From an uncultured delta proteobacterium (lineage in GTDB: Bacteria > Desulfobacterota > Desulfovibrionia > Desulfovibrionales > Desulfovibrionaceae): a stretch of DNA of 64,000 bases. The translations under genes and the position numbers were made by a program. The stretch lies in assembly GCA_900079685.1 (NCBI GenBank), contig LT599018.1:2909990-2973989 (forward strand), in the 5' to 3' direction. How positions within the stretch are numbered: position 1 is the stretch's first letter; every line of letters starts with the position of its first letter. Positions 5,158 through 33,555 of the stretch are shown in pieces. The notes below the pieces were generated by a model that saw nothing but the letters and a program-made list of their open reading frames with translations, did no database searches and was not told where the DNA came from.

Positions 5158-5168
5158 TCCCCCCAGAG

Positions 5169-5231
5169 CCGCGGGGCGCCGCCGCCCCGCGGTCTCACGA
5201 AACGGCCCGCGGCGCAGCCGCGCTGCGGGCC
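5169..5231 (+). other. two GC-rich intercistronic stem-loops between dctP and dctQ
   Basis: 10-bp stem CCGCGGGGCG/CGCCCCGCGG (5169-5192) and a roughly 12-bp stem GGCCCGCGGCGC.../...GCGCTGCGGGCC (5204-5231). Confidence 0.5.
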
Positions 5232-5276
5232 GCAAAGGCATCACCCGGCGGCGGCCCCTTCTAAAATGGAGGAAGA

Positions 5277-5804
5277 ATGCGAAGTATTTTGCGACAGATA
5301 AACGACAAGCTGATTGAAGCGGAAAAGATAACCTGCGCGTTGCTGCTCTTCGCTGTCCTCATGGTGACGGTGTGGGGGGTTTTCGAGCGGTTCGTCCTGC
5401 AAATAGGGTTCGGCTGGTCCGATGAAGTGGCGCGGTACGTCAACGTGTACTGCATCTTTCTCGGCGCATGCCTGGGCGTTGTAAAGAGCGCCCACGTGGG
5501 CGTGGATGTTTTTGTCCGCCTGGTTCCGGCCAGATACCACAAAATCCTGGGCGCGATTGCCTATGTTCTGTGCGCCGCGTTTTGCGCGTCCGTGGCTGTT
5601 ACGGGATACAGCTATTTCCTGCGGCTGCAAGCCTCGAACCAGATTTCCGCCGCCCTGCAAATACCGATCTGTTGGGTGTTTTTCGCGGTTCCGCTCGGGT
5701 GCGGCCTGATGTGCCTGCACTACATATTGCGGCTCGCGCTCGGGGATATCGAAACGCCTGTGGAAGTTCCTTCCAAGACAGTGAAGGGGGCTTCCGATGA
5801 GTGA
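5277..5804 (+). CDS. dctQ: TRAP transporter small permease (DctQ family)
   Basis: 175-aa hydrophobic protein between the DctP and DctM genes. GGAGGA lies upstream and the ORF overlaps the next one by 8 nt. Confidence 0.85.
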   Translation: MRSILRQINDKLIEAEKITCALLLFAVLMVTVWGVFERFVLQIGFGWSDEVARYVNVYCIFLGACLGVVKSAHVGVDVFVRLVPARYHKILGAIAYVLCAAFCASVAVTGYSYFLRLQASNQISAALQIPICWVFFAVPLGCGLMCLHYILRLALGDIETPVEVPSKTVKGASDE

Positions 5805-7068
5805 AATCCTGATCGTCTGCCTCGCCATCCTGATCGTGATGAACGTTCCCATTGCCATGAGCATAGGGTTCGCCACCTTCATCGCCATTTTCACGGCGGG
5901 CAAGGTTCCCCTGTTCCTGGTAAGCCAGCGCATGTTCACCGGGGTGGACTCCTTCCCGCTGCTGGCCATTCCTCTGTTCATGCTGGCCGGGAGCCTCATG
6001 GACAGAGGGGGCATATCCCGCCGCCTGATCGATCTCGCGACCGCGTTCGTGGGGCATATCCACGGCGGGCTCGGCATCATCGCGGTCATCGCCTGCATGT
6101 TCTTCGCGGCGATTTCCGGTTCCGCCCCGGCAACGGTTGTGGCCATCGGCTCCATCATGGTTCCCGCCATGATAAAGGCCGGGTATGACAAGGCGTTTTC
6201 CGTGGCCTTGCTGGCCGCCGCCGGCACCATCGGGGTGGTTATCCCGCCGAGCATTCCTTTCGTCACGTACGGGGTGTCCATGAACGCCTCCATTGGGAAA
6301 CTCTTCGCGGCGGGCCTTGTGCCGGGCATCCTGATGGGGCTGACCCTCATCATTCTCTGTTACGTCGTGAGCCTGCGCAGGGGATACAAGGCGACCATGG
6401 AAAACGCCAAGGGGCGGTTCGCGGCCGTTAAAGAGGCGTTCTGGGGGCTGCTCATGCCCATTATCATCCTCGGCGGGATTTACGGCGGCATTTTCACGCC
6501 CACGGAAGCCGCGGCCGTCGCCTGCCTGTACGGTTTGATCGTGGGGCTTTTCATCTATAGCGAGTTGAGCTTAAAAGTCATCTATGAATGCCTGCACACG
6601 GCGGCCGTGCCGTCGGCCATGGTGCTCCTGATAATCGGCTGCGCCACGGCCATGGGGTGGATCACCACAGCTGAAAAGGTCCCCCACGCGGTGGCCGCCT
6701 ACATGACCACGATCACCGATTCCAAGATCGCCATGCTGCTCATGCTGAACGGCATCCTGATTATCGTCGGCTGCCTCATGGAGCTCAACGCGGCCATCAT
6801 CCTGCTCGGCCCCATTCTCCTGCCCCTGCTCCTGCAATACAAGATAGACGTGGTCCACTTCGGCGTCATCATGGTCGTGAACCTGGCCGTGGGCTTGCTC
6901 ACGCCGCCCCTGGGGATCAACCTCTTTGTCGCCAACGGGTTACGGAAGGATGTGGATTTCAAAGATATAGTCAAAAGGGTTCTGCCCATGGTCGGTGCGT
7001 TGTTTGCGTTAGTCCTGATTCTCAGCTATATACCCGTCATCTCGTTGTTCCTGACCAGATTTGTATGA
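5797..7068 (+). CDS. dctM: TRAP transporter large permease (DctM family)
   Basis: 423-aa polytopic membrane protein with typical DctM length and sequence style (FTGVDSFPLLAIPLFMLAG). Confidence 0.9.
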   Translation: MSEILIVCLAILIVMNVPIAMSIGFATFIAIFTAGKVPLFLVSQRMFTGVDSFPLLAIPLFMLAGSLMDRGGISRRLIDLATAFVGHIHGGLGIIAVIACMFFAAISGSAPATVVAIGSIMVPAMIKAGYDKAFSVALLAAAGTIGVVIPPSIPFVTYGVSMNASIGKLFAAGLVPGILMGLTLIILCYVVSLRRGYKATMENAKGRFAAVKEAFWGLLMPIIILGGIYGGIFTPTEAAAVACLYGLIVGLFIYSELSLKVIYECLHTAAVPSAMVLLIIGCATAMGWITTAEKVPHAVAAYMTTITDSKIAMLLMLNGILIIVGCLMELNAAIILLGPILLPLLLQYKIDVVHFGVIMVVNLAVGLLTPPLGINLFVANGLRKDVDFKDIVKRVLPMVGALFALVLILSYIPVISLFLTRFV

Positions 7069-7143
7069 TGGTCACTGCAGAGCAATAGAGTAATGTAGAG
7101 AGAAGAGACATTTATCTATTTGCCATGAGGCGGGTTACAGTCA

Positions 7144-16240: not shown

Positions 16241-17452
16241 TCAGATGATCCCTTTGGCCCGAAGAGCGGCGCACTCTTCTTCCGACAATCCGAGCATGTT
16301 GCGGAAAATGGCCGTATTGCTTTTCCCCATTGGCTGGCCGGCATGAGAGATTCTCCCGGGCGTGCGGGAAAATTTGCCCATGACATTCGGCATGCGCAGG
16401 GTGGCGCCCAGTTCGTGGTCTTCCACGGCGGCAAAGGATTCGCGGTAAATATAGTGCGGGTCCTCATAGACTTGTTTTGTGGTGTACATCGGCCCTATGA
16501 CAGCGCCGACTTCGCCAAAAACGTGCTGCACCTCGTCCATGTCCCTTTCCTTGATCCAGCTTCCGATAAGCGAATCCAGTTCCTTGACGTTTCGCAGCCG
16601 GGCGGCGTTGTCGCAAAACCGCTCGTCGTTGATGAGTTCAGGTCTGCCGATGGCCTGGAATACCCTGGCGGCGATGGGTTGCGCGGAGCCTGAGAGGGCC
16701 ATCCATGTGCCGTCTTTGCACTGGTAAGCATTCCGGGGGGCAAAGGATTCGCTGGAGTTGCCCGAGGGTTTCGCCACCACCCCCAACTGGTCATACGCCA
16801 TGAGCTCGGCGTCCAGCAGGCGCATCAACGGTTCATACAACGCCATGTCGATGTATTGCCCCCGGTTGCCCGGGTTTTGGGAACGCTCGTGGACGGCGAT
16901 CATGACCGAAAGGGCGCTGAAAACTCCGCACACCCCGTCAGCCAGCGCGATGCCGGGTAATGTGGGCTGATCCTTGGCCCCGTTGACCGAGGCAAACCCG
17001 CTCATGGCTTCGGCTACCGTGCCGAATCCGGGCCGGGAAGAATACGGGCCTGTCTGGCCGAATGCGGAAACACGCAGCATGATAAGGGATGGGTTTATCT
17101 CGGAAAGAGCGTCCCACCCGATTCCCCAGCGCTCCATGGTGCCGGGACGGTAATTTTCGATAACCACATCAGCCTTGGCCGCCAGTTTTTTAAATATTGC
17201 CTGGCCCTCCGGCTTGCCGAGGTTAAGGGTTATGGCTTCCTTGTTTCTGGCCAGCGTTTTCCAGAACAGCGAAACGCCGTTTTTTTGTCTGCCGTATGCC
17301 CTAACGGTATCACCCTTTTCCGGGTGTTCAATTTTGATGACTCTGGCGCCGTAATCGCCCAGGAAGGCCGCGGCCCATGGCGCGGCGAGCATGGTCGCGG
17401 CGTCGATAACGGTAAGCCCGCTCAATGGCAGGGCGTTTTCGCGCTTTTGCAT
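16241..17452 (-). CDS. family III CoA-transferase (CaiB/BaiF type)
   Basis: N-terminus LSGLTVIDAATMLAAPWAAAFLGDYGARVIKIEHP is typical of the family. Start at MQKREN, preceded by GGAG. Confidence 0.85.
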   Translation of the reverse strand: MQKRENALPLSGLTVIDAATMLAAPWAAAFLGDYGARVIKIEHPEKGDTVRAYGRQKNGVSLFWKTLARNKEAITLNLGKPEGQAIFKKLAAKADVVIENYRPGTMERWGIGWDALSEINPSLIMLRVSAFGQTGPYSSRPGFGTVAEAMSGFASVNGAKDQPTLPGIALADGVCGVFSALSVMIAVHERSQNPGNRGQYIDMALYEPLMRLLDAELMAYDQLGVVAKPSGNSSESFAPRNAYQCKDGTWMALSGSAQPIAARVFQAIGRPELINDERFCDNAARLRNVKELDSLIGSWIKERDMDEVQHVFGEVGAVIGPMYTTKQVYEDPHYIYRESFAAVEDHELGATLRMPNVMGKFSRTPGRISHAGQPMGKSNTAIFRNMLGLSEEECAALRAKGII

Positions 17453-18706
17453 GGCTGCTCCACAATATAACAGGCACAATGTTTGCGGTATGGAACGTGC
17501 GGTACGCTGTCGGGTGGAATTTCCCGGAAGAAATCCCACCCGGCGCGATACTAAAAGTTGGTGCTCCAGATTTCCTCATCCGAGGGAATTTTTTTATTTT
17601 CCTGGAAAAAGGCTATCCGGGAAATGTTGATTAGATGGTAGTAAGTGAGGTTCTCGGAAATGGAGTTGTTCCCCCAGGAGCCGCAGCCGAGCGTGTTGGT
17701 CGGGCTCAGGCCGTTCTGGAAGCTGCCGCCCCCGCTGGCCGCGCACTGCTGGTTGACAACGATTCGGGACACTTCCGTCTTGACGCCGGCATATTCAATC
17801 CGTTCCTGATTGTTGGAGTGAACCGCTATACTGTGCCCTTTGCCGATTTTGTTCAGGTTGTTGCGGGCGATTTCCACGGCCTCTTCCCAGGTGTCGTACG
17901 GGTAGACCGCCAACAGGGGAAACATTTTTTCCTCGCCGAGGATATCGTCCGGGCCCTCGGCTTCAACCGCCAGAATCATGGTGTTCGCGGGCACCGTAAT
18001 GCCGGCGGCCGCCGCGACTTCCCCGGCGTTTTTCCCGACCAGGTCCCGGTTCATTTTACCCTGCGGGAACGCAATTGAGCGAAGGGCGGCTCGTTTCGAG
18101 GCCGGCACCACATAGGCGTTGTTTTCCGCAAATAACTTCATGAGGATATCCCAGTCCTTTCGGGGCAAGGCCGCGCTCTGTTCACTGGTACAGACGATGC
18201 CGTTATCAAAGGCTCTGCCGGTAACAATTTTCGGTATGACCGCGGCGTAATCCACACCGCTGTCAACCAGCGCCTGCACGTTTCCCGCGCCCACGCCCAA
18301 GGCGGGTTTCCCGCTCGCATACACGGAGCGCACCATGTCCATGCCGCCCGTGGCGATGATAACGTCCACGGAACTGGCGAGCATTTTTGTCAGTTCGAGA
18401 TGCGGAATCTCCAGCATTTGGATGCAGTTTTTGGGCGCATGCAGTTTTTCCAGGGCCGCGTTCAGGTAGGCGACGGTTTTTTTGCCGCATTCCAGAGCCT
18501 TGGGGTGCACCGCGAAAATGATGGGGTTTCTTCCCTTGAGGGCGAACATGGCGTTGGACATTACCGTCACGATCGGGTTGGTCATCGGCGTGATGGCGCC
18601 CACAACACCCAGAGGCTTGGCTACCTTGATGATTCCTTCTTCCTCGTTGCGTTCGATAATGCCGACAGATTTCTTGCCACGCAGAGACCACCAGATTATT
18701 CTGGCT

Positions 18707-19969
18707 CAATGCTGTCCGGCTAAGGTGCGTTAAATATGTTCAAAATCTCCGAGGTTTATGCTACAAAACAGTTGCATAACCCATTGCAGCCCAAGGAGAT
18801 TTTGAACATGAGCCATCATAATACACTCTTTTCTCAAATGCTATCATTGATTCCCAGACATGTTTTTCAGAAACTGGAAGCCCGGCATAAAACAGGTCGT
18901 TCTTCTCGACAATTCGGCTTTAAGGAACAGTTTACGGTCATGGCTTTTATCCAGCTTGCAGCAAGGCGCTCCATGCGTGACGGATTGCGCTGTTTGGCCG
19001 CCTGCGGCAAGAGGCTGTATCATTTTGGCCTTTTTCCCGTTGCACGTTCCACTTTCTCCGATGCCAACAACTCCCGGCCTGTGGGCTTTTTCAAAGATCT
19101 ATTTGCCGACATGTACAGCCTGTGTGTTCCCAAGGCCTCCAAACACAAATTTCATTTCAAATGCAAACTTTACAGCATGGACGCCACCACCATCAGCCTG
19201 TGTTTGTCGCTGTTTCCCTGGGCCACGTTCCGCCAAAACAAGGGCGGCGTCAAAATGAACACAGTGCTTGACCACGATGGTCATATCCCGGCATTTGTCA
19301 CCGTTGATGTGGCCAAAACGCACGAAAGCCGTATGGCGAAAAGTCTTTCTCTGCCCAAAGGCTCCATCGTGACCTTCGACAAAGGCTATGTCAGTTACCC
19401 CTGGTTTCAGACCCTGCTCGAAAATGGCATCTTTTTCGTCACCCGCCTGAAGGACAACGCTGTTTACAAACTGCTGGAGCGCCGCCCGGTGAACCGCACA
19501 AGCGGGGTTACTTCCGACCACATTATCGAAGTGAAGCACAGCCGGGGAAAAGTCTTGCGCCTGCGTCGCATCGGCTACCGGGACGCCGAAACAGGCAAGC
19601 GTTACGAATTTCTGACAAATCACTTTCGCCTGTCCGCCCGCACCATCGCCGATATTTACAAAGAACGCTGGAAAATCGAACTCTTTTTTCGCGAAATCAA
19701 ACAGAATCTACGCATCAAAAGCTTTGTCGGGAACACGGAAAATGCTGTATTGATTCAGATTTATACCGCGCTGACCGTCTACCTGCTCCTGGCCTACCAG
19801 AAATTCCTGAGTAAAACAGGGCTGTCCGTGCAGCAACTTTTCCAAATCGCCTCACTGAACATCCTCGGAACAGACTCGCTGGAAGAACTCCTGAAGCCCC
19901 GACGACGAAAAAATGAAAACCTCTATAACCTCAGTCTGTTATCCTTGGCAGCTTAACCGGACAGCATTG
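18707..19969 (+). mobile_element. IS4-like insertion sequence, copy 1 (1263 bp)
   Basis: Terminal inverted repeats CAATGCTGTCCGGCTAAG / CTTAACCGGACAGCATTG. Perfect 9-bp target duplication ATTCTGGCT at 18698-18706 and 19970-19978. Confidence 0.9.
18808..19956 (+). CDS. IS4-family DDE transposase
   Basis: 382 aa, MSHHNTLFSQMLSLIPRHVFQKLE..., preceded by AAGGAG. A paralogue lies at 31914..33059. Confidence 0.85.
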   Translation: MSHHNTLFSQMLSLIPRHVFQKLEARHKTGRSSRQFGFKEQFTVMAFIQLAARRSMRDGLRCLAACGKRLYHFGLFPVARSTFSDANNSRPVGFFKDLFADMYSLCVPKASKHKFHFKCKLYSMDATTISLCLSLFPWATFRQNKGGVKMNTVLDHDGHIPAFVTVDVAKTHESRMAKSLSLPKGSIVTFDKGYVSYPWFQTLLENGIFFVTRLKDNAVYKLLERRPVNRTSGVTSDHIIEVKHSRGKVLRLRRIGYRDAETGKRYEFLTNHFRLSARTIADIYKERWKIELFFREIKQNLRIKSFVGNTENAVLIQIYTALTVYLLLAYQKFLSKTGLSVQQLFQIASLNILGTDSLEELLKPRRRKNENLYNLSLLSLAA

Positions 19970-20472
19970 ATTCTGGCTTTGTTTTTATTTTTAAGAGTCT
20001 TATATTCAACCGTGCCGAGCTTTGTTTCCGCTACCGCGTCTCTGGCGAACTCCTCGGCATTGTCGAAAATAGTCTTGGCGCAAGCGTGGGCGAGTGCGTC
20101 AACCTGCCTCTGGGTGTACGAATCCAATTCGGCAAGAGCCACTCTGGCCTTGGCGATCTTGTCATCGATATAGGCTTTGAATGCAGCGGTCTGATCCGCT
20201 TTTTCCTCGAGATTCATTTCCTTTTTCTGGCTCATGTCTCTTCTCGCTTTTACCGTCAGGTAAGGTTTTGCAGCACCAGCCGGGTCCGGAGGGCGGAGGC
20301 CGTCCGCCGCCTTCCGGCGCGGCATTGTCCACAATGGACAATCGCTTTTGTTCGTTTGTATTGCTGGCGGCGATTCAGGAAAAACGCCGGCGTATCATGC
20401 CGCGGCTACACGTTTCAGACGTAATTCGTCCCGGAGCGTACAATGGGCGCATTTCGCGCTCCGGATAGGAGG

Positions 20473-22794
20473 CTAATAAAAAAAAGCGTCATGGCCGGCA
20501 GCTCCTGCCGCACGGTGGCGATATTCATGAGGGGGCCGTTGCGTCTGCGACACCGTTTCGTCATCCGCAAAGACAAATTGCTGGTGAAAACATCCCTTTT
20601 CCACGAATTCGCACAGCAGACGCACCAGCTTGTCGCGCCCCTGGGCGGTTGCGATCATTTTCTCGGGCAATCGCTGGCTGACGAAAACGCCGTTAAGGGC
20701 GCGATCCAAGCTGATTCTGCCCAGAGAGGCGGCGACCCCGGCATATCCCTTGTCGTTCGCGTCGTGCTTGGGGCTCAGCCCGTCGGCGAGAGGGAATCCC
20801 GCCAGTCGGCCGTCCGGAGATGCCGCGGTTTTCGCGCCGAGGCCGATATGGGTTCCTTCCGAGCACAATGCAGGCCAGAACCGGCCGTTGCGGTAGTTGC
20901 CATGTTTTTCCACGATGTCGAAGTACCGGTCGGCAACACGCGCGGCCAGGAGGTCCACGGACTCAATACCGTTGCCGAATTTGGGCAGGCTTGTAAGCGC
21001 CCGTTGACGCAACATTTTGTTTCCGCGAAAATTTTGGGCCAGAATGTCCCGAAACTCCGCGAACGTCAGCCGTTTTTCTTCAAATACAAAAGTCCGGACC
21101 GCCTCGAGCGAATCCGCGCAATTGGGCAGCCCCACGCCAAGCAGCCCGGTAGTGTTGTAACGGGCGCCGCCAGCCGTTGCCTCGCGGCCCTTTTCCAGGC
21201 AGCCGCCGATAAACAAACTGAGAAAGGGGAGCGGCATGATTTGCTGGTGGATATGGTCGGCAAGATTGGCATCACACAGTTGCAGGCTTGCGGCGTACTC
21301 CATCTGACGGTCAAATATCCGCAAGAAACATTCAAAGCGCTCACAGCCCTCAACAGGGGCATGCAAACCCAGCGGAGAGCCGAACAAAATGTCGCGCCCG
21401 TCACCGAGTGTGACTTCCAGCACTTTCGCTATATTGAGGCAGCCGCCATGACAGCGTCCCCAATGGCTGCCGACAGTGACTACGCTCCCGCCGGCGGGGA
21501 TATAATCCCGAGCTTCGGAAAGCGGTATGCCGTATCGCTCCAAGGCCGGGACGACACGTTCGTCGTTCACCACCTGGGGCATGCCGTTGCCGCAACACAG
21601 GCTTTGAACAATGCTTTCCAGGAAGTTTTCCGGGGTCAACCTGTGGAGGCGGGCCGTTACGTTTGGCTGGGTCAGGCCAATATGGCTGTTGGCTTGCAAG
21701 CACATGTGGGAAAGGGGGTTGGTCGCGTCCTCGCCATCGTTTCCGAGGCCGCCCACCGTCAAATTTTGTCCCGCGGCATACCCGGCATGCGCTTCCGCGG
21801 CCCCATCCTCGCCCAGCCGGATAATTTCACAAAATTTGAGGAACAACATGTCGATCAGTTCCTGCGCGGCTTCCGGCGAGATGGCGCCTTCCGTCAGGTC
21901 ACGTTTCAAAAACGGCCACATGTATTGATCAAAGCGGCCGGGGGTTATGGCGGATCCATTTGATTCTATATGCGCGGCAAGATGCATGAACCAAAATGCT
22001 TGAACCGCTTCCCGGAAATTCCGCGCCGGGTGCAAAGGGATACGCTCCAGCAAGGCAGCCATTGTATCCAATTCGGCAAGGCGGTCCGGATCGTCTTCAC
22101 GGGCGGTTAAATCCAGGACCAGTTTTTGGTGGCGCCGCGCCAAGGTCGCCAAGCCTTGGCACACTTCCAGGCAGGCATGGTACAATGTTACCTTTTCCGC
22201 GTGTTGCGGATCCGTGACCGGCAAATCTTTGAGGCGCTGCTCCAACTCCTCGCGGATTCCCAGAATCCCGACACGCAGAAGTTTGTCATAGTCCGGGGAG
22301 ACTTGCGCAAATCCGCTCCATGCGTGGGGTCCGTAAATCAGCCCGGCTTCGACCGCGGCTTTTATGGACGGAGGGCGCAAAGCCGAAAACGCATCGGCCA
22401 GCGTTTTCCCCCGCCAATAGGGGGCGAGTGCCCGCAAGGCGCCGCAGGTTTCCGGGGAGATGAAAATCCGGTTGGATTGTTTCGTTTTACCTGAGTCCAG
22501 GGTGTGGATAAATTCGATGCCGGCCTCGGGGAAAACCTCAACGCCGCGAGGTTTGGAGGCCGGGTGTCCCATGATGACCTCGCCCGGGTCAATAAAAATG
22601 GGCATCCGGGCTAATGTCTCACGCAGAGCGACGGCACGGGTGAGTACTCTCGGCGAGGCTTCCATGGACCGATATACTTCAGTATAGACAACGGCCCGCT
22701 CACTGCACATCTGGGGGGAACGGCTCAGGAAAAGCTCCTTCAAGCCTTGAACCCGTATGCTGGTGTTGCTGTTGATTATATTGGGAATCACCAT
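20473..22794 (-). CDS. glycyl-radical-enzyme (PFL2/eliminase)-fold protein lacking canonical radical residues
   Basis: 773 aa with GRE blocks ITPGRFDQYMWPF, NLTVGGLG, NGMPQVVND, GGARYNTTG and SPDGRLAGFPLADGLSP. The Cys loop reads DYIPAGGSVV and the C-terminus reads RAAGAAGHDAFFY*. Confidence 0.8.
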   Translation of the reverse strand: MVIPNIINSNTSIRVQGLKELFLSRSPQMCSERAVVYTEVYRSMEASPRVLTRAVALRETLARMPIFIDPGEVIMGHPASKPRGVEVFPEAGIEFIHTLDSGKTKQSNRIFISPETCGALRALAPYWRGKTLADAFSALRPPSIKAAVEAGLIYGPHAWSGFAQVSPDYDKLLRVGILGIREELEQRLKDLPVTDPQHAEKVTLYHACLEVCQGLATLARRHQKLVLDLTAREDDPDRLAELDTMAALLERIPLHPARNFREAVQAFWFMHLAAHIESNGSAITPGRFDQYMWPFLKRDLTEGAISPEAAQELIDMLFLKFCEIIRLGEDGAAEAHAGYAAGQNLTVGGLGNDGEDATNPLSHMCLQANSHIGLTQPNVTARLHRLTPENFLESIVQSLCCGNGMPQVVNDERVVPALERYGIPLSEARDYIPAGGSVVTVGSHWGRCHGGCLNIAKVLEVTLGDGRDILFGSPLGLHAPVEGCERFECFLRIFDRQMEYAASLQLCDANLADHIHQQIMPLPFLSLFIGGCLEKGREATAGGARYNTTGLLGVGLPNCADSLEAVRTFVFEEKRLTFAEFRDILAQNFRGNKMLRQRALTSLPKFGNGIESVDLLAARVADRYFDIVEKHGNYRNGRFWPALCSEGTHIGLGAKTAASPDGRLAGFPLADGLSPKHDANDKGYAGVAASLGRISLDRALNGVFVSQRLPEKMIATAQGRDKLVRLLCEFVEKGCFHQQFVFADDETVSQTQRPPHEYRHRAAGAAGHDAFFY

Positions 22795-22904
22795 ACCTTG
22801 GCCTCAACCACGCCTCGTGTTGTCGTGAAATGTGTTCCCTTTTCCGCCAGCCCGCTCCATTGGACATTGCCCGCGGAGTTTCCGCCCGAATGGTGGAGGC
22901 AAAA

Positions 22905-22919
22905 GCAATCGGCGTGCCA
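22905..22919 (-). promoter_or_regulatory. sigma-54 (-24/-12) promoter of the GRE-like operon
   Basis: Minus strand reads TGGCACGCCGATTGCT, matching the consensus TGGCAC-N5-TTGCW. It lies about 110 nt upstream of the start codon at 22794. Confidence 0.75.
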
Positions 22920-23006
22920 TCCGCGCAAGTGAGGTGCGGCGGTTGGCGGATAATGCGTTTCAGGCAGGAAGCAATGACAGGGAGGATAGATAAAAATGAG
23001 ACAAAC

Positions 23007-23034
23007 GTGACAATTTGAGGCATTGACTTGTCAC
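23007..23034. promoter_or_regulatory. candidate upstream activator site (inverted repeat)
   Basis: GTGACAA-N14-TTGTCAC, with an extra GAGACAA half-site at 22998-23004. It lies about 100 bp upstream of the sigma-54 promoter, in the divergent intergenic region shared with the activator gene. Confidence 0.5.
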
Positions 23035-23070
23035 AGTTGGCCCAGTATTGTGCCGCCAAAGGGAGGCTCT

Positions 23071-25294: not shown

Positions 25295-27082
25295 TTATTT
25301 GCATTCCGGCCAGCCGGTGCAGCCCCAGAAATCGTAGCCGCCCTTGCCGTCTTTGCCGGGCTTTTTCACCCGGCGCACCATAGGCTTGCCACATTTTTCG
25401 CAGACCTTGCCTGTGGCCTTGGCAAAGGCCTGGAGTTCCTGTTTCAGGCGGGCATGAGCCTCACTGATCACGGAGTGGTAGTCGGCTTTGCCTGCGGCGA
25501 TGTCATCCAGCGCCTGTTCCATCTGGCGGGTAAACTTGTATTCCACGAAGCTGAAGTTGTCGCGCAACTTATCCACCACCATAACACCCAGCGGCGTGGG
25601 GGTGAGGAAGCGTTTTTCAGTTTTGACGTAGCCCCGGCTCATGATGGTATCCAGGATAGCGGCATAAGTGGACGGGCGACCAATGCCGCGCTTTTCCAAT
25701 TCGCGGATCAGGCTGGCTTCGGTGAATCGGGCAGCGGGTTTGGTCTTTTTGGTCAACACCGTGCCGGTCAGCGCCGTGGGCCTGGTTCCCGGCTTCATGG
25801 CCGGAACCGGGTTTTCCGGTTCCGTAGCGTCTTCAACATCATCCGCGGTCACATCTCCCGCTGTCAGCACCTTCCAACCTTGGGAAAGGAGCGTCCGCCC
25901 CTTGGCTTCAAAGAGCGCCTGTTTGCCGTCCAGATCCGCAGCTAGCTGAAGCACCCGCACGGCGTACACGGCGTCTTCCAGCTGGCTGGCTAGCGAGCGC
26001 AGGCGGATCAGCCGGTACAGAGCCTTTTCATCGGCGGTTTCGCCTGCTTCCTCGATTTCTATATGCGTGGGGCGAATGGCTTCATGCGCTTCCTGTGCGC
26101 CTTCTTTCGACTTCCAGGAGCGTGGATTTTCCACCAGCGGCCAGCCCTGGCCTTCGCAGAAGGCGCGAATCGCATCCCCGGCGTCCTGCGAAAGGTTGTG
26201 AGAGTCCGTTCTCATGTAGGTGATCGCCCCTTGTTCATAGAGGCGTTGCGCCAATTGCATGGTTTGCTTGGGCGTGAATTTCAGAGCGTTGGAGGCAGCC
26301 TGTTGCAGGCTGGAGGTGGTAAAGGGAGCCGGAGGCGCGGAGCGGCTTTCCGACTCTTTGCAGTCTACGACTTCAAGGGAGCGGAGCGCCGCCGCTTTTT
26401 CGGCCAGGGCTTTATCAAGCAGGTATTCCTGACCGTCTTCAAGCCACGGCTTGACCAGCCATGTGGCCTTCCAGCCGTCCGTGATGTTGTCTACGTTCTC
26501 AAAGCTCAGCTCCGCGCCGTAGTGGGTTGTGCTGCGAAAATCCTGAATTTCCCGCTCGCGCTCCACCACCAGACGTACAGCCGGACTCTGTACCCGGCCG
26601 GCCGACAGCTTCTCGCCGGCCACATTGGAAAGAGGCCCGCTGACCATATAGCCGCAGAAGCGATCCAGAACCCGCCGCCCTTCCTGCGCAGCCACCAGGG
26701 CCATGTCTATGGAGCGCGGCACATCAAGCGCGGCTTTGATGGCCTTTTCTGTGATTTCCGCATAGGTGACGCGCTTGGCGTCCTTGAGCTTCAGAGCGTC
26801 TTGGATATGCCAGGCGATGGCTTCCCCTTCGCGGTCAGGGTCGGTGGCCAGGTAGACGGCTTCCACGTTTTTGACCAGCCCAGCCAGACGGGAGAGAACA
26901 TCTTTGCCCCTGTCCGTGGGAATGTATTTCGGTTTGAAACCCGGCGCGGCCACGCCCATTTCCTTGATAGGCAGATCGCGCACATGGCCGACCGAGGCCA
27001 CAACCTTCCAGTCGGAACCGAGGATTTCCTGCACCTTTTTCACTTTGCCGGGGGATTCGAGAATAAGCAGTTTTGAGCACAT
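25295..27082 (-). CDS. type IA DNA topoisomerase (TraE/Topo III-like, mobile-element type)
   Basis: Toprim N-terminus LLILESPGKVKKV...VGHVRDLP and a C-terminal zinc ribbon CEKCGKPMV...WGCTGWPEC. Confidence 0.85.
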   Translation of the reverse strand: MCSKLLILESPGKVKKVQEILGSDWKVVASVGHVRDLPIKEMGVAAPGFKPKYIPTDRGKDVLSRLAGLVKNVEAVYLATDPDREGEAIAWHIQDALKLKDAKRVTYAEITEKAIKAALDVPRSIDMALVAAQEGRRVLDRFCGYMVSGPLSNVAGEKLSAGRVQSPAVRLVVEREREIQDFRSTTHYGAELSFENVDNITDGWKATWLVKPWLEDGQEYLLDKALAEKAAALRSLEVVDCKESESRSAPPAPFTTSSLQQAASNALKFTPKQTMQLAQRLYEQGAITYMRTDSHNLSQDAGDAIRAFCEGQGWPLVENPRSWKSKEGAQEAHEAIRPTHIEIEEAGETADEKALYRLIRLRSLASQLEDAVYAVRVLQLAADLDGKQALFEAKGRTLLSQGWKVLTAGDVTADDVEDATEPENPVPAMKPGTRPTALTGTVLTKKTKPAARFTEASLIRELEKRGIGRPSTYAAILDTIMSRGYVKTEKRFLTPTPLGVMVVDKLRDNFSFVEYKFTRQMEQALDDIAAGKADYHSVISEAHARLKQELQAFAKATGKVCEKCGKPMVRRVKKPGKDGKGGYDFWGCTGWPECK

Positions 27083-27154
27083 GACATTTTCCTTATGAAG
27101 GCCGTCATGCGGCGCGGGGTTGGGGCGCGAGGCTCGCAGGAATATTATGAGAAG

Positions 27155-27910
27155 CTACGCGGCCTGTTGAGGAGGTTGATGTGAACGGCGAGCAGCCTCT
27201 CCGGAAAAGCGTTTGTCCAGGTCAGAAACAGAGTGTTTCCCGGCATATTGCCGATACGGCTCCGGGAGCCATGATTCCATTTCCAACATACGCTGCCAGA
27301 ATGCCGGGAAGTGATGGTATAACTTTTCAGCCTGCGCAATGCCGCCCAACGGACAGCACCAGCAGCTTACGCGGTCAAAAATACCATATAAGCCGCCCCA
27401 GGTCAGACCGCGCTCCCTGCAATACGCCAAAGCGTGTTCTTCAGAGATCCCCCATTCCACCATCGGATAGGCATAGCATTGAAAGCGTGGAGCCTTCTTT
27501 GCCCTGTGCTTTTCCACGCGGTCAGGCTCATCGGAGGCATAGCCGAGGCATTGAACGGCAGGAAGGCTAATTCCCTGCCAGGTCAGGGAGTTGACGTATG
27601 CGTTGATAGCGCGGGTCTTTTCTCCAGTACACCAGCGCCGCATTGCAGAGGGCCAACCGTAACCCTGGCGTGTATTTTGAATATTTCGCGTGCGGGCTTT
27701 CCGCGCCAAGATAAAATCAAAACTTTCGCGGGGAACGAGGCGGGTAATTTTTTGCTTGATAATGTCTTCAACCTGCGCAATATGCGCCTCCATATGGGGA
27801 AATTCCCAACCAGTATCAAAATAAACAATATCGGTCATTTTGATGCCAAGCTCATGAAGCCGCAGCACAAGATAGGTGCTGTCTTTCCCACCAGAGAAAG
27901 ACGGAATCAT
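27155..27910 (-). CDS. PAPS-reductase-like adenine-nucleotide alpha-hydrolase family protein
   Basis: PP-loop SFSGGKDST at the N-terminus and a Cys-rich C-terminal part (VSCWCCPLG). GGAG lies upstream of the ATG. Confidence 0.75.
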   Translation of the reverse strand: MIPSFSGGKDSTYLVLRLHELGIKMTDIVYFDTGWEFPHMEAHIAQVEDIIKQKITRLVPRESFDFILARKARTRNIQNTRQGYGWPSAMRRWCTGEKTRAINAYVNSLTWQGISLPAVQCLGYASDEPDRVEKHRAKKAPRFQCYAYPMVEWGISEEHALAYCRERGLTWGGLYGIFDRVSCWCCPLGGIAQAEKLYHHFPAFWQRMLEMESWLPEPYRQYAGKHSVSDLDKRFSGEAARRSHQPPQQAA

Positions 27911-27930
27911 TGTTGCTCTCCGCCAAGCCT

Positions 27931-29928
27931 TCATAAAGCCAACTCCCGCGTCTTCCCCTTGTCACGGGATTTGTCCGTAGCCTGTTGCAACACAAGGCCA
28001 ACCTGCTTTTTCACTTCATCAAGCCCGCGTGACTGGTGCAGATCGTTGAAATCGGTCAGGCCTCGTGCTCGCTCCTCTTCATTGAAGATCGGGGCTACGA
28101 CCTTGCCGCCCACGGGTTTTTCCGTTGCCATGTGCAGGCTCGCACCGGTTGCGTAACCTTCGGCCAGCAAGATTTCGCCTTGGGAGAGGTCTTTGCCGGG
28201 TTCGGCGATCAGGTGGTAATTGCCGTTTTTCTCCATGCCGGATTGAAAGCGTTTCTGGCCTTCCGGAGAAATGTATTGCAGGCCGCGCAAGTCACCCTCG
28301 ACGTTTTGCGCCGGAACCATCAGGTTGCCGTCCAGATCCTCCCGAACACCAAGCGGCGGAACACCCTTTTTCTGGAGATAGGCATTTTCCGCTGTCGCCC
28401 AATCGTGGCCGATCCATTCCGCATGTGCGTCACGCGCAGCCGAATGCTGGCGCTCAATAATAGCCTGCTGCCGCTCTTCCCGTTTTCGGGCGATTTCCGC
28501 TCGCTGGACAGCCAACTGCTCTTTGGTCAAGGTGTGGTCGGACGCCGCCCAGGTATGTTTTTCTCCCGCGCTGAAATCCTGCATCCACCCGGCAGGTCTC
28601 TCGTCCAGGAAGCCGCAATATGCGCCGTCCAAATCGCCCCGGCTTTTGCCGATGATCGGAACGCGATGGATCTGGCCGTCCATGATCGGCTCTTTGCCGC
28701 CCAAATCCAGGCCAAACTGTTCCAGAGCCCTGGAAAACTCTTCCTGCGGCGGCATGGTGATTTGCGGCTCCAGCGCGATGGCCTTTTCCGGCAGCCAGGC
28801 GGAAAGCTGGTTCAGGTCTGTGCCTTCCGGCGCGTACCAGAGCTTGTTGTCCTTGTCCCACTTCGCTCCCAGCTTCTTGGCCTGCTCTTTTTCCTTGTAC
28901 GGTACAGCCAGGAACGTCTTTTCCGTGGCCGGATTTGCCGGAACGCCCATCGCCGCTATGCCCTCGTCACGTTCCACATTGCGTTCAGGCCGCACCGCCT
29001 GTTCCTGCGCCAGCTCTTTTTTCATTTCCAGCCCCAGGATGTATTCCTTGATCTGCTCCGCGTCCCGACAGGCCCGGACTATTTCATAGGGGTCATCCTC
29101 CAGCGCCTTGACCCAGGAGTTCACATACGAGGCGTGATGTTCCGGATCATGCGGGATGCCGATGTCCTGACCGAGCATCCAGGAGGCGATTTCCGCCCGC
29201 AGCTCTTCTCTGGCGTACATTTCGGAGCCGAACGGCCCGTTTTCCCGATCCAGACGGCTGGAGTGGCGCGTCCAGTGTCCGAGTTCATGCAGGGCCGTTC
29301 CGTAATACAAGCCGGGCTCTTCAAAGTTTTCACGCGGCGGCAGATGGATGGAGTCGGTGCCGTAACGGTAAAATGCGCGGTTGCTCTGGTCGTGGTTGAT
29401 GTTCGCGCCGGAGGCAGAGAGAATATTTTCCGCCTTTTCCACCGGCTCCCATTCAAAGGCCTTGTCCGTGAGTTCCAGGGGCGGCATTCCTTCGATCTGC
29501 TCTGCATTGAAGACGTGGGCAAAACGCATGATCGGCTTGTCCAATTCCACGGTCATTTTTTCCGGCTTGCCGTCCTCGCCGAGAACAGGTTTGCCGTCTT
29601 CGCCCAGACGATCCTGTTCTTTGCTGAACTGGAAATAGACCACGGGCGTGGCCTTGCTGCCGGGCATGATGCGCATATCCTTTTCGTTAGCCTGGCGCAG
29701 GGTCATCCAGCGCGGATCGTCATAGCCGGAAAGGGCCAGATGCACCCGGTTCATGCCCCGATAGACCGTTCCGGAAGCCGGATTGTGCGGCGCGGCAATG
29801 GTTTTTCCGGGATGCCAGGGCTGTTGCCAGGGTGCGGTTCCTTCCTTCAGGCGCTCGATGATCTTTTCCGCGAACTCTTCATGAAAGGGGGGGCGCTTGG
29901 GCTTGTCGGATTTGTTACCGTTCTTCAT
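27931..29928 (-). CDS. ArdC-like ssDNA-binding/zincin metallopeptidase fused to a Toprim primase-like domain
   Basis: ArdC N-terminus (TAPWQQPWH, GTVYRGMNRVHLAL), HExxH (ALHELGHW), a KKLGAKWDKDNKLWYAP module, and a Toprim-like C-terminus (ILLAEGYATGAS). GGAGG precedes the ATG at 29928. Confidence 0.8.
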   Translation of the reverse strand: MKNGNKSDKPKRPPFHEEFAEKIIERLKEGTAPWQQPWHPGKTIAAPHNPASGTVYRGMNRVHLALSGYDDPRWMTLRQANEKDMRIMPGSKATPVVYFQFSKEQDRLGEDGKPVLGEDGKPEKMTVELDKPIMRFAHVFNAEQIEGMPPLELTDKAFEWEPVEKAENILSASGANINHDQSNRAFYRYGTDSIHLPPRENFEEPGLYYGTALHELGHWTRHSSRLDRENGPFGSEMYAREELRAEIASWMLGQDIGIPHDPEHHASYVNSWVKALEDDPYEIVRACRDAEQIKEYILGLEMKKELAQEQAVRPERNVERDEGIAAMGVPANPATEKTFLAVPYKEKEQAKKLGAKWDKDNKLWYAPEGTDLNQLSAWLPEKAIALEPQITMPPQEEFSRALEQFGLDLGGKEPIMDGQIHRVPIIGKSRGDLDGAYCGFLDERPAGWMQDFSAGEKHTWAASDHTLTKEQLAVQRAEIARKREERQQAIIERQHSAARDAHAEWIGHDWATAENAYLQKKGVPPLGVREDLDGNLMVPAQNVEGDLRGLQYISPEGQKRFQSGMEKNGNYHLIAEPGKDLSQGEILLAEGYATGASLHMATEKPVGGKVVAPIFNEEERARGLTDFNDLHQSRGLDEVKKQVGLVLQQATDKSRDKGKTRELAL

Positions 29929-30121
29929 ACAGCACCTCCCCCTGGGCGTTGATGGTGAGCAGCGCGTCTTCAATCAGATCCGCCAGGATAATGGCGTCTT
30001 CCTGAAACGCGCCCATGTGTTCAGCCACGTCCGGATCAAGCGGAACGTAAAGCCCTGGATCGTCCGTAATCTGTTGAGCCGCAGCTCTCGCGGCGGCGGC
30101 AAGGTATTCTTTGTGGGTCAT
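29915..30121 (-). CDS. small hypothetical protein in the transfer cluster
   Basis: 68-aa ORF (MTHKEYLAAAARAAAQQ...) packed tightly between traF and the ArdC/primase gene. No family recognised. Confidence 0.4.
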   Translation of the reverse strand: MTHKEYLAAAARAAAQQITDDPGLYVPLDPDVAEHMGAFQEDAIILADLIEDALLTINAQGEVLYEER

Positions 30122-30125
30122 AGTG

Positions 30126-30650
30126 CTATTCCTTTGTGTGGTTGGGGTTAAAAACAAAAACAGGCTCGACCCGCTGAAGAGACTCCAGCGGAACGAGCCC
30201 GAAATACCTGCTGTCAAAACTGCCTTCATGATCGGCCAGCACCAAGGCCATGCCCGTGGGGATGACGCCGGAGCGCAGAACCGAAGGCATGGGCTGCCCC
30301 TGGCTGTCCACCGTGCGGATAGCCAGGGCGGCGGCATCTATATGCTCGCCCGGCAGGCCTGCCAGGCGTTTAAGGAGCGGACGCAGGCCGCTCTCGCAGG
30401 AACCGGCCCGGAGGTAGCCGCGCTCTTTGGCCAGAGACGCAAACTCACCGCGCAGGCAAAAGCTGACCAGATCGCCTTTGGCGAGGTCAACGGAACCATG
30501 TTCCGGCGCGAGGCGGTAAATGCCTTTGGGCAAGGACGGTGTGGGGTTGATGCGCAGGCCGGAAGCGTGGGTCAGCAGCCCGGTCAGCAGCAGACAGAGG
30601 CCAACGAAAAGCCAGCCCAGCACTCGGCTATTCCATAAAATAGCGTTCAC
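30126..30650 (-). CDS. traF: conjugative-transfer signal peptidase TraF (S26 family)
   Basis: About 174 aa from a GTG start. One TM helix, then PSLPKGIY...GDLV...DSRYFG, a block typical of TraF/TrbI-processing peptidases. Located next to traG. Confidence 0.7.
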   Translation of the reverse strand: MNAILWNSRVLGWLFVGLCLLLTGLLTHASGLRINPTPSLPKGIYRLAPEHGSVDLAKGDLVSFCLRGEFASLAKERGYLRAGSCESGLRPLLKRLAGLPGEHIDAAALAIRTVDSQGQPMPSVLRSGVIPTGMALVLADHEGSFDSRYFGLVPLESLQRVEPVFVFNPNHTKE

Positions 30651-31590
30651 TGGAGTTCTCCTGTGCGGGCTTCGGAGCGGCTTCGGCTTCCGGCGCGGGT
30701 TTGGTGGAGGATGCAGACGGATTGGCCGAGTACCAGGACGCGGGGCGCGGCTGATACAGGGAATCGCTGATGCCGCTGGGATAGACAGCATTCAGGCCGG
30801 GAACCGGCACCTTGGCGCGGGCGGCAAAGACGGGATCGAAGAAGTACAGGATCTGTCGCCCGTAAATGGGCGACTGGCCAGCGGTGAACACCAGCATATC
30901 GCCTGGCTTCACCACGCGGCCCTGACTGTCCTTTTCCGGGCCGGGCAGCCTCATGCACTCGTCAGGTGTGAGCAGCGGCCTGGCCGTTTCCGTGACGTTG
31001 ACTGAGGCGTTTTTCATGTGGCCGGTGCGCGAACCGGAGAGCGACACCTTTTCTTCCACGACAGTGGTTTTCCCGGTCATGTCCGAAAGGTTTTTAGCAG
31101 TTTCAATGGTGTTCGGTGCGTAGGCAATTCGCACATGGCAGTTGGCCATGAGGGCGTTATCCTTGCCGTACACGCCGTTAAGCTGGGTAATGTCCTGAAC
31201 GATGATGTAAACTTTGCCGCCGTAGCCCGCGATGTAGGCTAGGGCCTTTTCCATGATCGGCAGCTTGCCCAAGGACGTGAACTCGTCCAGCAACAGTAAA
31301 AGCCTGTGCTTGTACCCGGCCTTGCTGGAACCGTCCGCAAACTCCATTTTGGAGCAAATCCGGCGCACGATCATATCCACCATGAGCCGCAGGAGGGGCC
31401 GCATCCGATCGATGTCCGCCGGGGAAATCACCAGGTAGAGGTTCACCGGCTTGTCATGGTTCATGAGGTCATGGATGCGGAAGTCGCAATGGCCGGTATT
31501 GAGCGCCACAACAGGATCGCGGTACAGCGCCAGGTTGGTCAGGGCCGTGGAGACAACGCCGCTCGCTTCATTCTCCGCCTTGTTCGTCAA
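30628..31590 (-). pseudogene. traG: type IV coupling protein TraG/VirD4, C-terminal half only
   Basis: 320 aa matching the C-terminal half of coupling proteins (LLLLLDEFTSLGKL, GGKVYIIVQDITQL, RPLLTPDE). There is no ATG, an in-frame TAA lies just upstream, and the sequence switches abruptly to AT-rich DNA at about 31591. Confidence 0.8.
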
Positions 31591-31900: not shown

Positions 31901-33160
31901 CATTGCTGTCCGGCTAAGCACCCAATTCTAATAGGCTGAGATGTTGAAGATTATCTTTTCTTCGCCGTCGTGGATTCAGGAGTTCTTCCAGAGACGCCGA
32001 ACCGAGCAGGTTGAGCTGGATGAGTTGGAAAAGTTGCTGCACGGACATCCCGATGCGGCTGAGGAATTTTTGGTACGCCAGCAGCAGGTACACCGTCAGG
32101 GCCGTGTAGACTTGAATCAGTACCGCGTTTTCCGAGTTGCCGACAAAGGTCTTTATGCGCAGATTTTGTTTGATTTCCTTGAAGAAAAGCTCGATTTGCC
32201 AGCGGTCTTTATAGATGTCGGCAATGGTTTTTGGCGAGAGCCGGAAGTTATTGGTTAAAAACTCGTAATGTTTTCCGGTTTTCTGGTCGCGGTAGCCAAT
32301 ACGCCGCAGCCGCAGGCCTTTTCCCCGACTGACGACCTCAATGATGTGATCGGAAGTGACACCGGTCCCCCGGCGCACCGGGCGGCGCTCCAAAAGCTTA
32401 TAAACGGCGTTGCGTTTGAGGCGGGTCACGAAAAAGCTGGCTTTTTCCTCAAGGGCTCGAAACCAGGGGTAGCTGATGTACGCCTTGTCAAAAACCACTA
32501 TGGAGGCTTTGGGCAGTTCCAGGGATTGAGCCATACGACTTTCATGTGTTTTGGCGTCGGTGACGGTTACGAAAGCCGGGATATGCCCGTCATGGTCCAG
32601 CAGGGTGTGCATTTTGACGCCGCCTTTGGCTTGGCGGAACGAAGCCCATGGGAAGAGCGAAAGGCAAAGCTTGATGGTGGTAGCGTCCAAGCTGAACAGC
32701 TTGGATTTGAAGCGAAATTTGTGCTTCGGAGTTTTTGTCGCGCACAAGCCGTACATTTCGGCGAACAGGTCATGAAAAAAGCCCACGGGCCGGGAGTTGT
32801 TCGCATCAGCGAACGTTGAGCGGGCCACGTTTTTCAGGCCCCAGTGGTACAAGCGGTTCCCGGCTGCGGCCAGGCAACGCAACCCATCGCGCATGGAGCG
32901 CCTTGCGGCAAGCTGTATGAAGGCCATGGCGGTGAACTGCTCCTTGAAGCCGAATTTGCGTGAGGCCCGCCCTACTTTGTGCCGGTGTTCGAGCTTTTGA
33001 AAAACATGTCTGGGAATCAGAGATAGCATCTGGGAGAAAAGTGTATTATGGTGACTCATGTCCAAAATCTCCTTGTGTGGCAAAGTTTTTCGCAAACTCT
33101 TTATACCACATCGCATTGAGATTTTGGACTTTTTTCTTAACCCTTAGCCGGACAGCAATG
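31901..33160 (-). mobile_element. IS4-like insertion sequence, copy 2 (1260 bp)
   Basis: Inverted repeats CATTGCTGTCCGGCTAAG / CTTAGCCGGACAGCAATG. Perfect 9-bp target duplication ACAAAAAAA at 31892-31900 and 33161-33169. Confidence 0.9.
31914..33059 (-). CDS. IS4-family DDE transposase (diverged paralogue of 18808..19956)
   Basis: 382 aa with the same N-terminus MSHHNTLFSQMLSLIPRHVFQKLE. Roughly three quarters of residues are shared with copy 1 by eye. Confidence 0.85.
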   Translation of the reverse strand: MSHHNTLFSQMLSLIPRHVFQKLEHRHKVGRASRKFGFKEQFTAMAFIQLAARRSMRDGLRCLAAAGNRLYHWGLKNVARSTFADANNSRPVGFFHDLFAEMYGLCATKTPKHKFRFKSKLFSLDATTIKLCLSLFPWASFRQAKGGVKMHTLLDHDGHIPAFVTVTDAKTHESRMAQSLELPKASIVVFDKAYISYPWFRALEEKASFFVTRLKRNAVYKLLERRPVRRGTGVTSDHIIEVVSRGKGLRLRRIGYRDQKTGKHYEFLTNNFRLSPKTIADIYKDRWQIELFFKEIKQNLRIKTFVGNSENAVLIQVYTALTVYLLLAYQKFLSRIGMSVQQLFQLIQLNLLGSASLEELLNPRRRRKDNLQHLSLLELGA

Positions 33161-33555
33161 ACAAAAAAAGCACCCGTATCACGTTATAGCGTGGCGCGGG
33201 CGCTTTAGTTACAGGTTATTTGCCTTATAAACAACTAATAGCCAGGAATGTTTTTAATGCGTAATCCAGTGCCATAGCAGCCTTGGTCATTGCATGCCAT
33301 TGGGGGCATCCTGCGGTCTAAATTCAAAAACGCGGTCCTCACACATGACCAGCACCATGTTCATCAGTTCTTAGAAAGATAATGTACTATCAAATTTATT
33401 AAAATAAAATAAGGTGTTTTTTACAATCCCCTGTTAAATCAATGCATTCTGAATGTAATGCATTCATTTAGTTGCACAAACTGCCTAAAGCATATATCAT
33501 TTATAAGTGAAGCAAAATTTATTGTTCTTGATACCAATCTCGAAAGGAGAAAAAT

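Follow-up and report, generated by a model that had tools for sequence, protein, structure and literature searches.

The window analysed here is a 64,000-nucleotide stretch of an uncultured delta proteobacterium (assembly GCA_900079685.1, contig LT599018.1, positions 2,909,990 to 2,973,989). It carries a 773-amino-acid (aa) open reading frame (ORF) with the fold of the PFL2-type glycyl radical enzymes (GREs), called GRE1* below, GRE1 being its canonical counterpart in related loci. Comparison with these relatives shows that GRE1* derives from a canonical GRE, is radical-dead and has been left without its activase in an operon that, to judge from its genes, is still eroding. At the level of sequence, its losses show that it is not activatable and that no GRE chemistry is possible. 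It is neither an early pseudogene nor, because no other sequence has its substitutions, a member of an established non-radical family, but a dead GRE on which some selection has acted over a long time. We lean towards the view that GRE1* is a catalytically dead but still translated first cistron, kept mainly by its place between the sole evident promoter and the genes for an aldehyde dehydrogenase (ALDH) and a CoA-transferase, rather than a new enzyme.

Identity of GRE1* and loss of the radical and active-site residues

The GRE1* protein is identical to SBW07462.1, which is filed at NCBI as "putative Formate acetyltransferase 2". It is encoded on the minus strand, the plus-strand reading of 20473-22794 having been discarded since it contains stops; an earlier note on this DNA had given no strand. 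That note had recognised blocks of PFL2/eliminase-type GREs in the ORF. Every block that it quoted is present in the translation, and the Pfam profile PFL-like (PF02901), which describes the ten-stranded barrel, matches residues 14-653 with 596 bits. The Pfam profile Gly_radical scores 31.8 bits only. NCBIfam TIGR01774 gives 554.7 bits, under its cut-off of 678.2, while the canonical relatives P0002, P0005 and P0014 reach 721-728 bits. The AF2 model, whose input was an alignment of canonical homologues, has a pLDDT of 84.7 and a pTM of 0.87, with low confidence confined to residues 101-107, 331-340 and 646-649 and to the Gly-loop region 751-773 (pLDDT <50 at 751-773). It superposes on the diol/glycerol dehydratase GREs 1R8W, 5I2G and 9RCP with TM scores of 0.92-0.93, and the B12-independent glycerol and 1,2-propanediol dehydratases (1R8W, 5I2A, 9RCP) are the structural neighbours of the predicted fold (TM 0.92). 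Codon-position periodicity (GC1/2/3) is gene-like along the whole length of GRE1*.

In an alignment of GRE1* with 19 homologues, the Cys loop reads AGGSV where the relatives have VGCDE. The thiyl Cys (in the GCDE of the relatives and invariant in 54 of them) is replaced by Gly436, and the CXE motif's Glu by Val438. The Gly loop reads AAGAAGHDAFF in place of VVRVAGYSAIF, the aligned Gly767 being kept. The end of GRE1* reads GAAGHDAFFY followed by a stop, so that the Gly alone is left of the glycyl radical domain (GRD) fingerprint and the remainder of the motif lies past a frameshift. The earlier note had read the same changes from the letters (Cys to Gly and Glu to Val in the Cys loop; Gly kept, with Arg, Val, Tyr and Ser of the fingerprint gone), and the proper alignment that it had called for places neither a Cys nor an RVxG motif at the catalytic positions.

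The partner of the CXE Glu is also affected, as Gln164 of GRE1* corresponds to His160 of HypD. The HypD variants H160Q and E436Q, which concern the CXE Glu and partner His of the eliminases, are inactive (PMC7077986). With E438V and H164Q, GRE1* retains neither residue of this pair. Further replacements are S282A, N449H and Y644C, at positions that presumably align with the pocket residues Ser282, Asp447 and Tyr640 of glycerol dehydratase.

These changes set GRE1* apart from all its relatives. It departs at 20 of the 80 columns that are invariant across the 54 other sequences, while each of these departs at no more than three, and by these counts the departure is far beyond chance. Among the best 120 hits in 5.8 billion proteins, both motifs are missing solely in GRE1* and in one partial entry; the Cys and Gly motifs are kept in all 73-74 GREs retrieved from metagenome contigs. 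No orthologue with the same substitutions was found among the 5.8 billion proteins and the metagenome contigs, and peptides specific to the query had no match in the latter. The best other homologue is 59% identical and canonical, and the dead form was seen in no other species or strain searched. Internal compensated frameshifts were ruled out as the source of the odd motifs: in tblastn, residues 1-772 form one ungapped in-frame high-scoring segment pair (HSP), and the Gly-loop DNA, inspected by eye, offers no parsimonious pair of shifts.

A 2026 review defines GREs by the GRD fingerprint RVxG[FWY]x6-8[FL]x4Qx2[IV]x2R, by a Cys that is essential for catalysis and by a specific activase (PMC13450708). 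The earlier note had reported no activase ORF in the 64 kb. In agreement with it, neither tblastn with two cognate activases nor a hidden Markov model (HMM) of five activases, run against all six frames, detected a radical-SAM activase there; in each of the six related loci examined, the gene directly downstream of the GRE encodes one. GRE1* fails for the fingerprint, the Cys and (within the 64 kb) the activase and, on this evidence, should not be filed as a functional GRE. Its annotation as 'formate acetyltransferase 2', or as a GRE by Pfam domains alone, over-calls function.

The canonical GREs of the same clade (P0002 / L129 GRE1, P0003) are collinear with GRE1* over the full length at 58-59% identity, and share with it a place beside an orthologous sigma-54 activator and a conserved promoter. 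Unlike them, GRE1* has no adjacent activase or TRAP transporter, lacks the Cys, Glu, His, radical motif and last 20 residues, and fails TIGR01774. The aminoacyl radical enzymes (AAREs), in which Thr, Ser or Ala replaces the radical Gly, are confirmed radical enzymes with >100 homologues (PMC13450708). They resemble GRE1* in being GRE-fold proteins that depart from the canonical Gly fingerprint. Unlike them, GRE1* keeps the aligned Gly767, is without Cys, motif or activase, and is a singleton. Membership of the AAREs was rejected on the retained Gly767 and the missing Cys and activase, assuming that AAREs retain the latter two. In the literature searched, no report was found of a radical-dead GRE (Gly/Cys radical pair and activase lost) kept as an intact ORF.

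Two GRE-like regions occur in chain A of PDB 9f3w, a choline trimethylamine-lyase of 1150 residues, which matches GRE1* twice, in its catalytic domain (363-1130) and in an N-terminal partial copy (~26-329). The N-terminal copy is without Cys and Gly loops and represents a natural non-radical GRE-fold fragment.

Synteny, the inferred deletion and the 3' end

Related loci were traced from the closest matches of the window's activator (72-75% identical) to their contigs. In L129 and L130 the activator orthologue (72-74% identical) faces GRE1-activase1-DctP-DctQ-DctM-activase2-GRE2, and GRE1 (791 aa, 99.9% identical to P0002) is fully canonical. In L046, orthologues of the window's ALDH and CoA-transferase (90% and 83% identical) follow a canonical GRE. 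This GRE is 27% identical to GRE1* and is the orthologue of L129 GRE2 (83% over 264 overlapping aa, 76% nucleotide identity). Three contigs from one sample, L131 (activator), L006 (GRE1-activase-DctP) and L046 (GRE2-ALDH-CoA-transferase), are collinear with L129 at 74-78% nucleotide identity. The window is 74% identical in nucleotides to L129 over the activator and 76-79% identical to L046 over ALDH and CoA-transferase. As these values are alike, the three lineages are about equally distant from each other.

The simplest ancestral order would be activator ↔ GRE1-AE1-DctPQM-AE2-GRE2-ALDH-CoA-transferase. The window has activator ↔ GRE1*-(~180 bp)-ALDH::IS-CoA-transferase, IS denoting an insertion sequence. 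Homology between the window and L046 starts exactly at the ALDH ATG (20236 junction) and homology to GRE1 ends at the ancestral stop, so that ~7.8 kb, comprising both activases, the transporter and GRE2, appears to have gone in the window lineage, leaving GRE1 abutting ALDH. According to the earlier note, a cognate activase and a canonical sequence in close relatives would make this copy just a mutated allele. Part of this is seen: the syntenic orthologues are canonical and activase-linked, and they belong to related lineages.

The 3' end of GRE1* is also altered. Its present stop lies one codon past a T8 run at which a frameshift removes the last 20 codons. The tail that is readable in the +1 frame adds 7 bits against the HMM of the relatives, a gain matched by 0 of 200 shuffles, and can be aligned, one codon to one, to the 3' termini of GRE1 in L129 and L006. 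With the tail restored, GRE1* has 792 aa, the same length as its relatives. The frameshift is either real or a homopolymer error; as the sequence reads, 20 codons are removed either way. The earlier note had described the ORF as uninterrupted, which is true of the 772 codons that precede this point but not of the end.

Between the GRE1* stop and the ALDH start lies a spacer of 237 bp (~180 bp counted from the ancestral stop). An activase remnant in it was ruled out by tblastn, HMM and DNA alignment. Homology with the region upstream of ALDH in L046 was likewise ruled out, the last few bases before the ATG alone being alignable. A sigma-70 consensus scan of the spacer detected no promoter. A perfect palindrome with 8-bp arms, ATTGTCCATTGTGGACAAT (ATTGTCCA-TTG-TGGACAAT), is present at 20324-20342 and is followed by a GC-rich stretch. 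It has no counterpart in L046 or L129, and could be a regulator-binding site or a deletion scar.

In the relatives (L129 1-2734; L046 1-1602), two GREs, two activases and a TRAP transporter form one sigma-54-controlled island. Neither island GRE matches a characterised NCBIfam equivalog, and the island may encode an undescribed two-GRE catabolic pathway for a carboxylate substrate. The sigma-54 promoter lies ~430 nt upstream of GRE1 in L129 (9406-10000) and ~110 nt upstream of GRE1* in the window (22795-23070), the leader of the window lineage being ~300 nt shorter. The L129 leader includes a called ORF of 82 aa, with no Pfam hit, which is nearly identical in L001 and missing in the window. 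Two other sets of relatives were tried as synteny guides and rejected: those of the CoA-transferase in GTDB genomes have no GRE or ALDH adjoining, and ALDH relatives with 80-81% identity sit in aldolase/TRAP loci without a GRE.

Residual constraint on GRE1* and its possible causes

Branch values were obtained by the three-point method from Nei-Gojobori distances between the window (W) and two relatives (A and B). Identities for the pairs W-A, W-B and A-B are 73.7%, 75.3% and 77.6% for the activator and 59.1%, 57.8% and 84.7% for GRE1. For the whole of GRE1, the nonsynonymous distance (dN) is 0.26 on the W branch and 0.04/0.06 on the A/B branches, with a rough omega of 0.27 for W (0.05-0.08 for A and B). 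The W-branch dN is 0.24 for residues 1-600 (rough omega 0.24) and 0.42 for the GRD, residues 670-773 (rough omega 0.48). The activator has a W-branch dN of 0.10 (A/B 0.09/0.08). None of the invariant columns is changed in ALDH (0/113; branch 0.062 vs 0.051 for the sister) or in the CoA-transferase (0/62; 0.23 vs 0.19). The acceleration appears specific to GRE1*, the activator, ALDH and CoA-transferase having evolved at a normal rate.

This acceleration is unevenly distributed along GRE1*. Measured in amino acids, its branch has a length of 0.39 over residues 1-600 and of 1.0 over the GRD; the sister branch has 0.14 and 0.06, so that the usual order is inverted. Changes affect 5 of 48 invariant residues before residue 600 vs 13 of 30 after it (Fisher p = 0.0017), and 43-47% of the otherwise invariant residues in the region 601-773. 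In conserved columns, the changes have a mean BLOSUM62 score of +0.38 up to residue 600 and of -0.32 beyond it, the expectation under random single-nucleotide change being -0.35 to -0.69. W-branch substitution also falls with site conservation, from 53% to 16% in residues 1-600 and from 67% to 41% in residues 601-773. In simulations of neutral drift by substitutions alone, indels not being counted, an open ORF survives in 4% of runs at 10% aa divergence, in 0.5% at 16% and in 0.2% at 19%.

These comparisons reject uniform neutral decay, given the regional differences in rate, the conservative substitutions in the barrel and the open frame. Some selection outlasted the loss of radical function. 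The GRD and the active site appear to be nearly neutral and the barrel under relaxed purifying selection. There was thus a long phase during which change was tolerated in the radical domain and active site but not in the barrel and frame. GRE1* does not show the uniform loss of constraint of a pseudogene (omega near 1, random changes, loss of periodicity). The "very early stage of decay" proposed in the earlier note is contradicted by the W-branch dN and by the proportion of invariant residues changed in the region 601-773. That note had missed the deletion, the 3' frameshift, the IS in ALDH and the canonical orthologues. Erosion seems to be ongoing, as indicated by the T8 frameshift and the IS in ALDH.

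The following sequence of events would account for these observations. The ancestral state of the island would have been GRE1, a canonical, activase-linked PFL2-type GRE of an uncharacterised clade. A deletion of ~7.8 kb would have brought GRE1, still driven from the old sigma-54 promoter, immediately upstream of ALDH-CoA-transferase. GRE1* would then have lost the thiyl Cys, the CXE Glu, its partner His, further positions of the presumed active-site pocket, the RVxG[FWY] motif for activase recognition and the last 20 codons. Normal constraint would have continued to act on ALDH and CoA-transferase up to the IS insertion, a very recent event. Since these two genes are constrained and lie downstream with no promoter evident for them alone, selection may act indirectly on the frame and foldability of GRE1*. 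Nonsense or misfolding mutations in it would be costly, through polarity on the downstream genes or through the cost of misfolding itself. As far as one sequence allows, a buffered relic is the most likely outcome rather than new biology. The locus provides a dated, syntenically anchored example of the fate of a GRE once its activase has been deleted. The radical domain and active site were released first while the barrel stayed constrained, indicating which parts of the fold are needed for radical chemistry alone.

Several points weigh against this explanation. Polarity or misfolding cost as the cause of ORF retention is an inference, and the constraint on the barrel is equally compatible with a real new function. 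The synonymous distance is saturated (1.5-2.1; ~1 on the W branch), so that the omega values are rough only. The ancestral order was pieced together from contigs of two lineages, none of which by itself spans GRE1 to CoA-transferase. The spacer could hold a promoter missed by the sigma-70 consensus scan, and the 3.0-Mb genome could encode an activase outside the window.

A true pseudoenzyme, with the barrel recruited for a selected non-catalytic role (ligand binding, scaffold, or partner of ALDH/CoA-transferase or of the activator), is the main rival, possible though clearly not the explanation that we favour. The region-specific constraint, the open ORF and the conservative barrel substitutions would all fit such a role, as would the intact sigma-54 promoter and activator and a GRE fold that is confidently predicted outside the Gly loop despite the loss of the catalytic residues. 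However, GRE1* is a singleton whose substitutions occur in no collection searched. The known or presumed pocket positions are replaced too (H164Q, S282A, N449H, Y644C), which argues that the ancestral ligand site is not preserved, and the frameshift at the C-terminus, like the IS in the gene that follows, indicates that erosion is under way. A parallel exists in the GRM1 microcompartment loci, where a second aldehyde dehydrogenase (AldDH) with a mutated catalytic Cys is present in every GRM1 locus that encodes two AldDHs (PMC4207490). Like GRE1*, this dead AldDH has lost its catalytic nucleophile, has an otherwise intact ORF and belongs to a GRE-associated catabolic locus. Its copies recur, showing selection, whereas GRE1* has no counterpart elsewhere. 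The earlier note had proposed a non-radical, neofunctionalised member of the GRE fold. Its first half stands, Cys, Glu and fingerprint being gone; neofunctionalisation is not shown, as GRE1* is a singleton and the syntenic orthologues are canonical. It is rather doubtful that GRE1* is a functional non-radical GRE-fold protein, kept by selection for binding, scaffolding or regulation within the ALDH/CoA-transferase operon that sigma-54 controls, and the first GRE-derived pseudoenzyme. Were GRE1* expressed and useful, the pseudoenzyme concept would extend to radical enzymes; otherwise it would document well how a gene inside an operon dies slowly, buffered by selection.

That GRE1* is an ordinary pseudogene drifting neutrally, with a frame left open by luck, is improbable. 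The decay of the operon (activases deleted, 3' frameshift, IS in ALDH) and a TIGR01774 score under the family cut-off would agree with it, but uniform drift accounts neither for the change at the most conserved sites (16% in the barrel vs 41% at equivalent C-terminal sites) nor for branch lengths of 0.39 vs 1.0. Moreover, drift matching the excess of change in the barrel leaves the ORF open in ≤0.5-4% of the simulations (substitutions alone), and codon periodicity is intact.

A barrel remodelled for a new, non-radical catalytic reaction is very improbable. Substitution of the pocket residues, without deletion, and a fold predicted to be retained would fit it, but a single sequence allows no new conserved motif to be recognised, no catalytic set is suggested by the residues brought in (Gly, Ser, Val, Gln, Ala, Cys), and the changes in the C-terminal third score near the neutral expectation. 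Equally little probability attaches to an assembly or sequencing artefact, or to an enzyme still using a radical on Gly767 with an activase encoded elsewhere. Homopolymers such as the one at the frameshift are typical places for errors, GRE1* keeps the aligned Gly and the activase search was confined to the window, but hundreds of in-frame substitutions in a single ungapped HSP (1-772) are beyond sequencing error, and the essential thiyl Cys is missing, as are the Arg, Val and aromatic residue of RVxG[FWY]. The PFL activase has reportedly been crystallised with a bound RVSGYAV peptide that contains a motif of this type.

Promoter, activator and neighbouring genes

The features of the locus are listed in Table 1. 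The sigma-54 promoter and dedicated activator announced in the earlier note are both present, and ALDH and the family III CoA-transferase are co-oriented with GRE1* as it had stated, with ALDH split by the IS. The target duplication of the IS is the 7-bp TTCTGGC found at 18699-18705 and 19971-19977. In silico removal of the IS and one copy of the duplication restores an intact ALDH ORF of 470 aa.

Table 1. Positions of GRE1*, its altered motifs and the adjoining features in the window
Feature	Position	Strand	Evidence or remark
Family III CoA-transferase, true start probably near 17452	16241..17539	minus	83% identical to L046 orthologue
ALDH, 3' part	17551..18705	minus	interrupted by IS
IS4-family insertion sequence, 1265 bp, transposase 18736-19956	18706..19970	plus	23-nt inverted repeats
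CoA-acylating ALDH, 5' part	19978..20235	minus	90% identical to P0121
Spacer at inferred deletion junction, no activase remnant	20236..20414	minus	L046 homology begins at 20236, GRE1 homology ceases at ancestral stop
Ancestral C-terminal tail ISLLSGARNAPIVRSGTNYV and stop, in +1 frame	20415..20477	minus	three-frame translation, HMM, DNA alignment
T8 homopolymer, frame shift point, then premature TAG at 20475-20473	20478..20485	minus	sequence, three-frame translation
Degenerate Gly loop RAAGAAGHDAFF in place of LVVRVAGYSAIF, residues 761-772	20479..20514	minus	alignment, leave-one-out list
GRE1*, 773-aa radical-dead PFL2-type GRE-fold ORF	20473..22794	minus (22794→20473)	translation, Pfam/NCBIfam scores, AF2 model
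Degenerate Cys loop DYIPAGGSVV, residues 430-439	21478..21507	minus	alignment, leave-one-out list
Codon 164, Gln replacing invariant active-site His	22303..22305	minus	aligns with residue 166 (His) of 5i2a diol dehydratase chain
Sigma-54 promoter TGGCACGCCGATTGC	22905..22919 (22919-22905)	minus	conserved in orthologous locus L129 (CGGCATGCCAATTGC)
Divergent sigma-54 activator (GAF-PAS-AAA+-HTH_8), 702 aa	23071..25179	plus	evolving at the normal rate

Outside the window, the 3.0-Mb contig of the same genome encodes one more CoA-acylating ALDH (69% identical) and one more activator of this type (62%) (P0135, P0245). This paralogous locus might compensate for the IS-disrupted ALDH. The DctP-like and DctM-like TRAP genes at 4183-7080 of the window are ~31% identical to those lost from the GRE island, and are unrelated paralogues, not the missing island genes.

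A second IS4-family element at 31901-33161 (transposase 31914-33116, minus strand) has 74% DNA identity to the IS in ALDH, with matching terminal inverted repeats and a ~8-bp A-rich direct repeat (CAAAAAAA) at its ends, so that two diverged copies of one IS family occur within 15 kb. Directly past the activator stop, the region 25295-31590 contains conjugative/mobile-element genes, including a type IA topoisomerase (25295-27082), a PAPS-reductase-like gene and an ArdC-N/zincin protein (27931-29973). A TraG/VirD4 ORF in the same region covers profile positions 216-459 alone and is probably truncated. L129 carries a phage-type integrase, a ParD and an HTH_17 gene on the corresponding side of its activator, and mobile DNA seems to have settled repeatedly at the activator-flanking junction.

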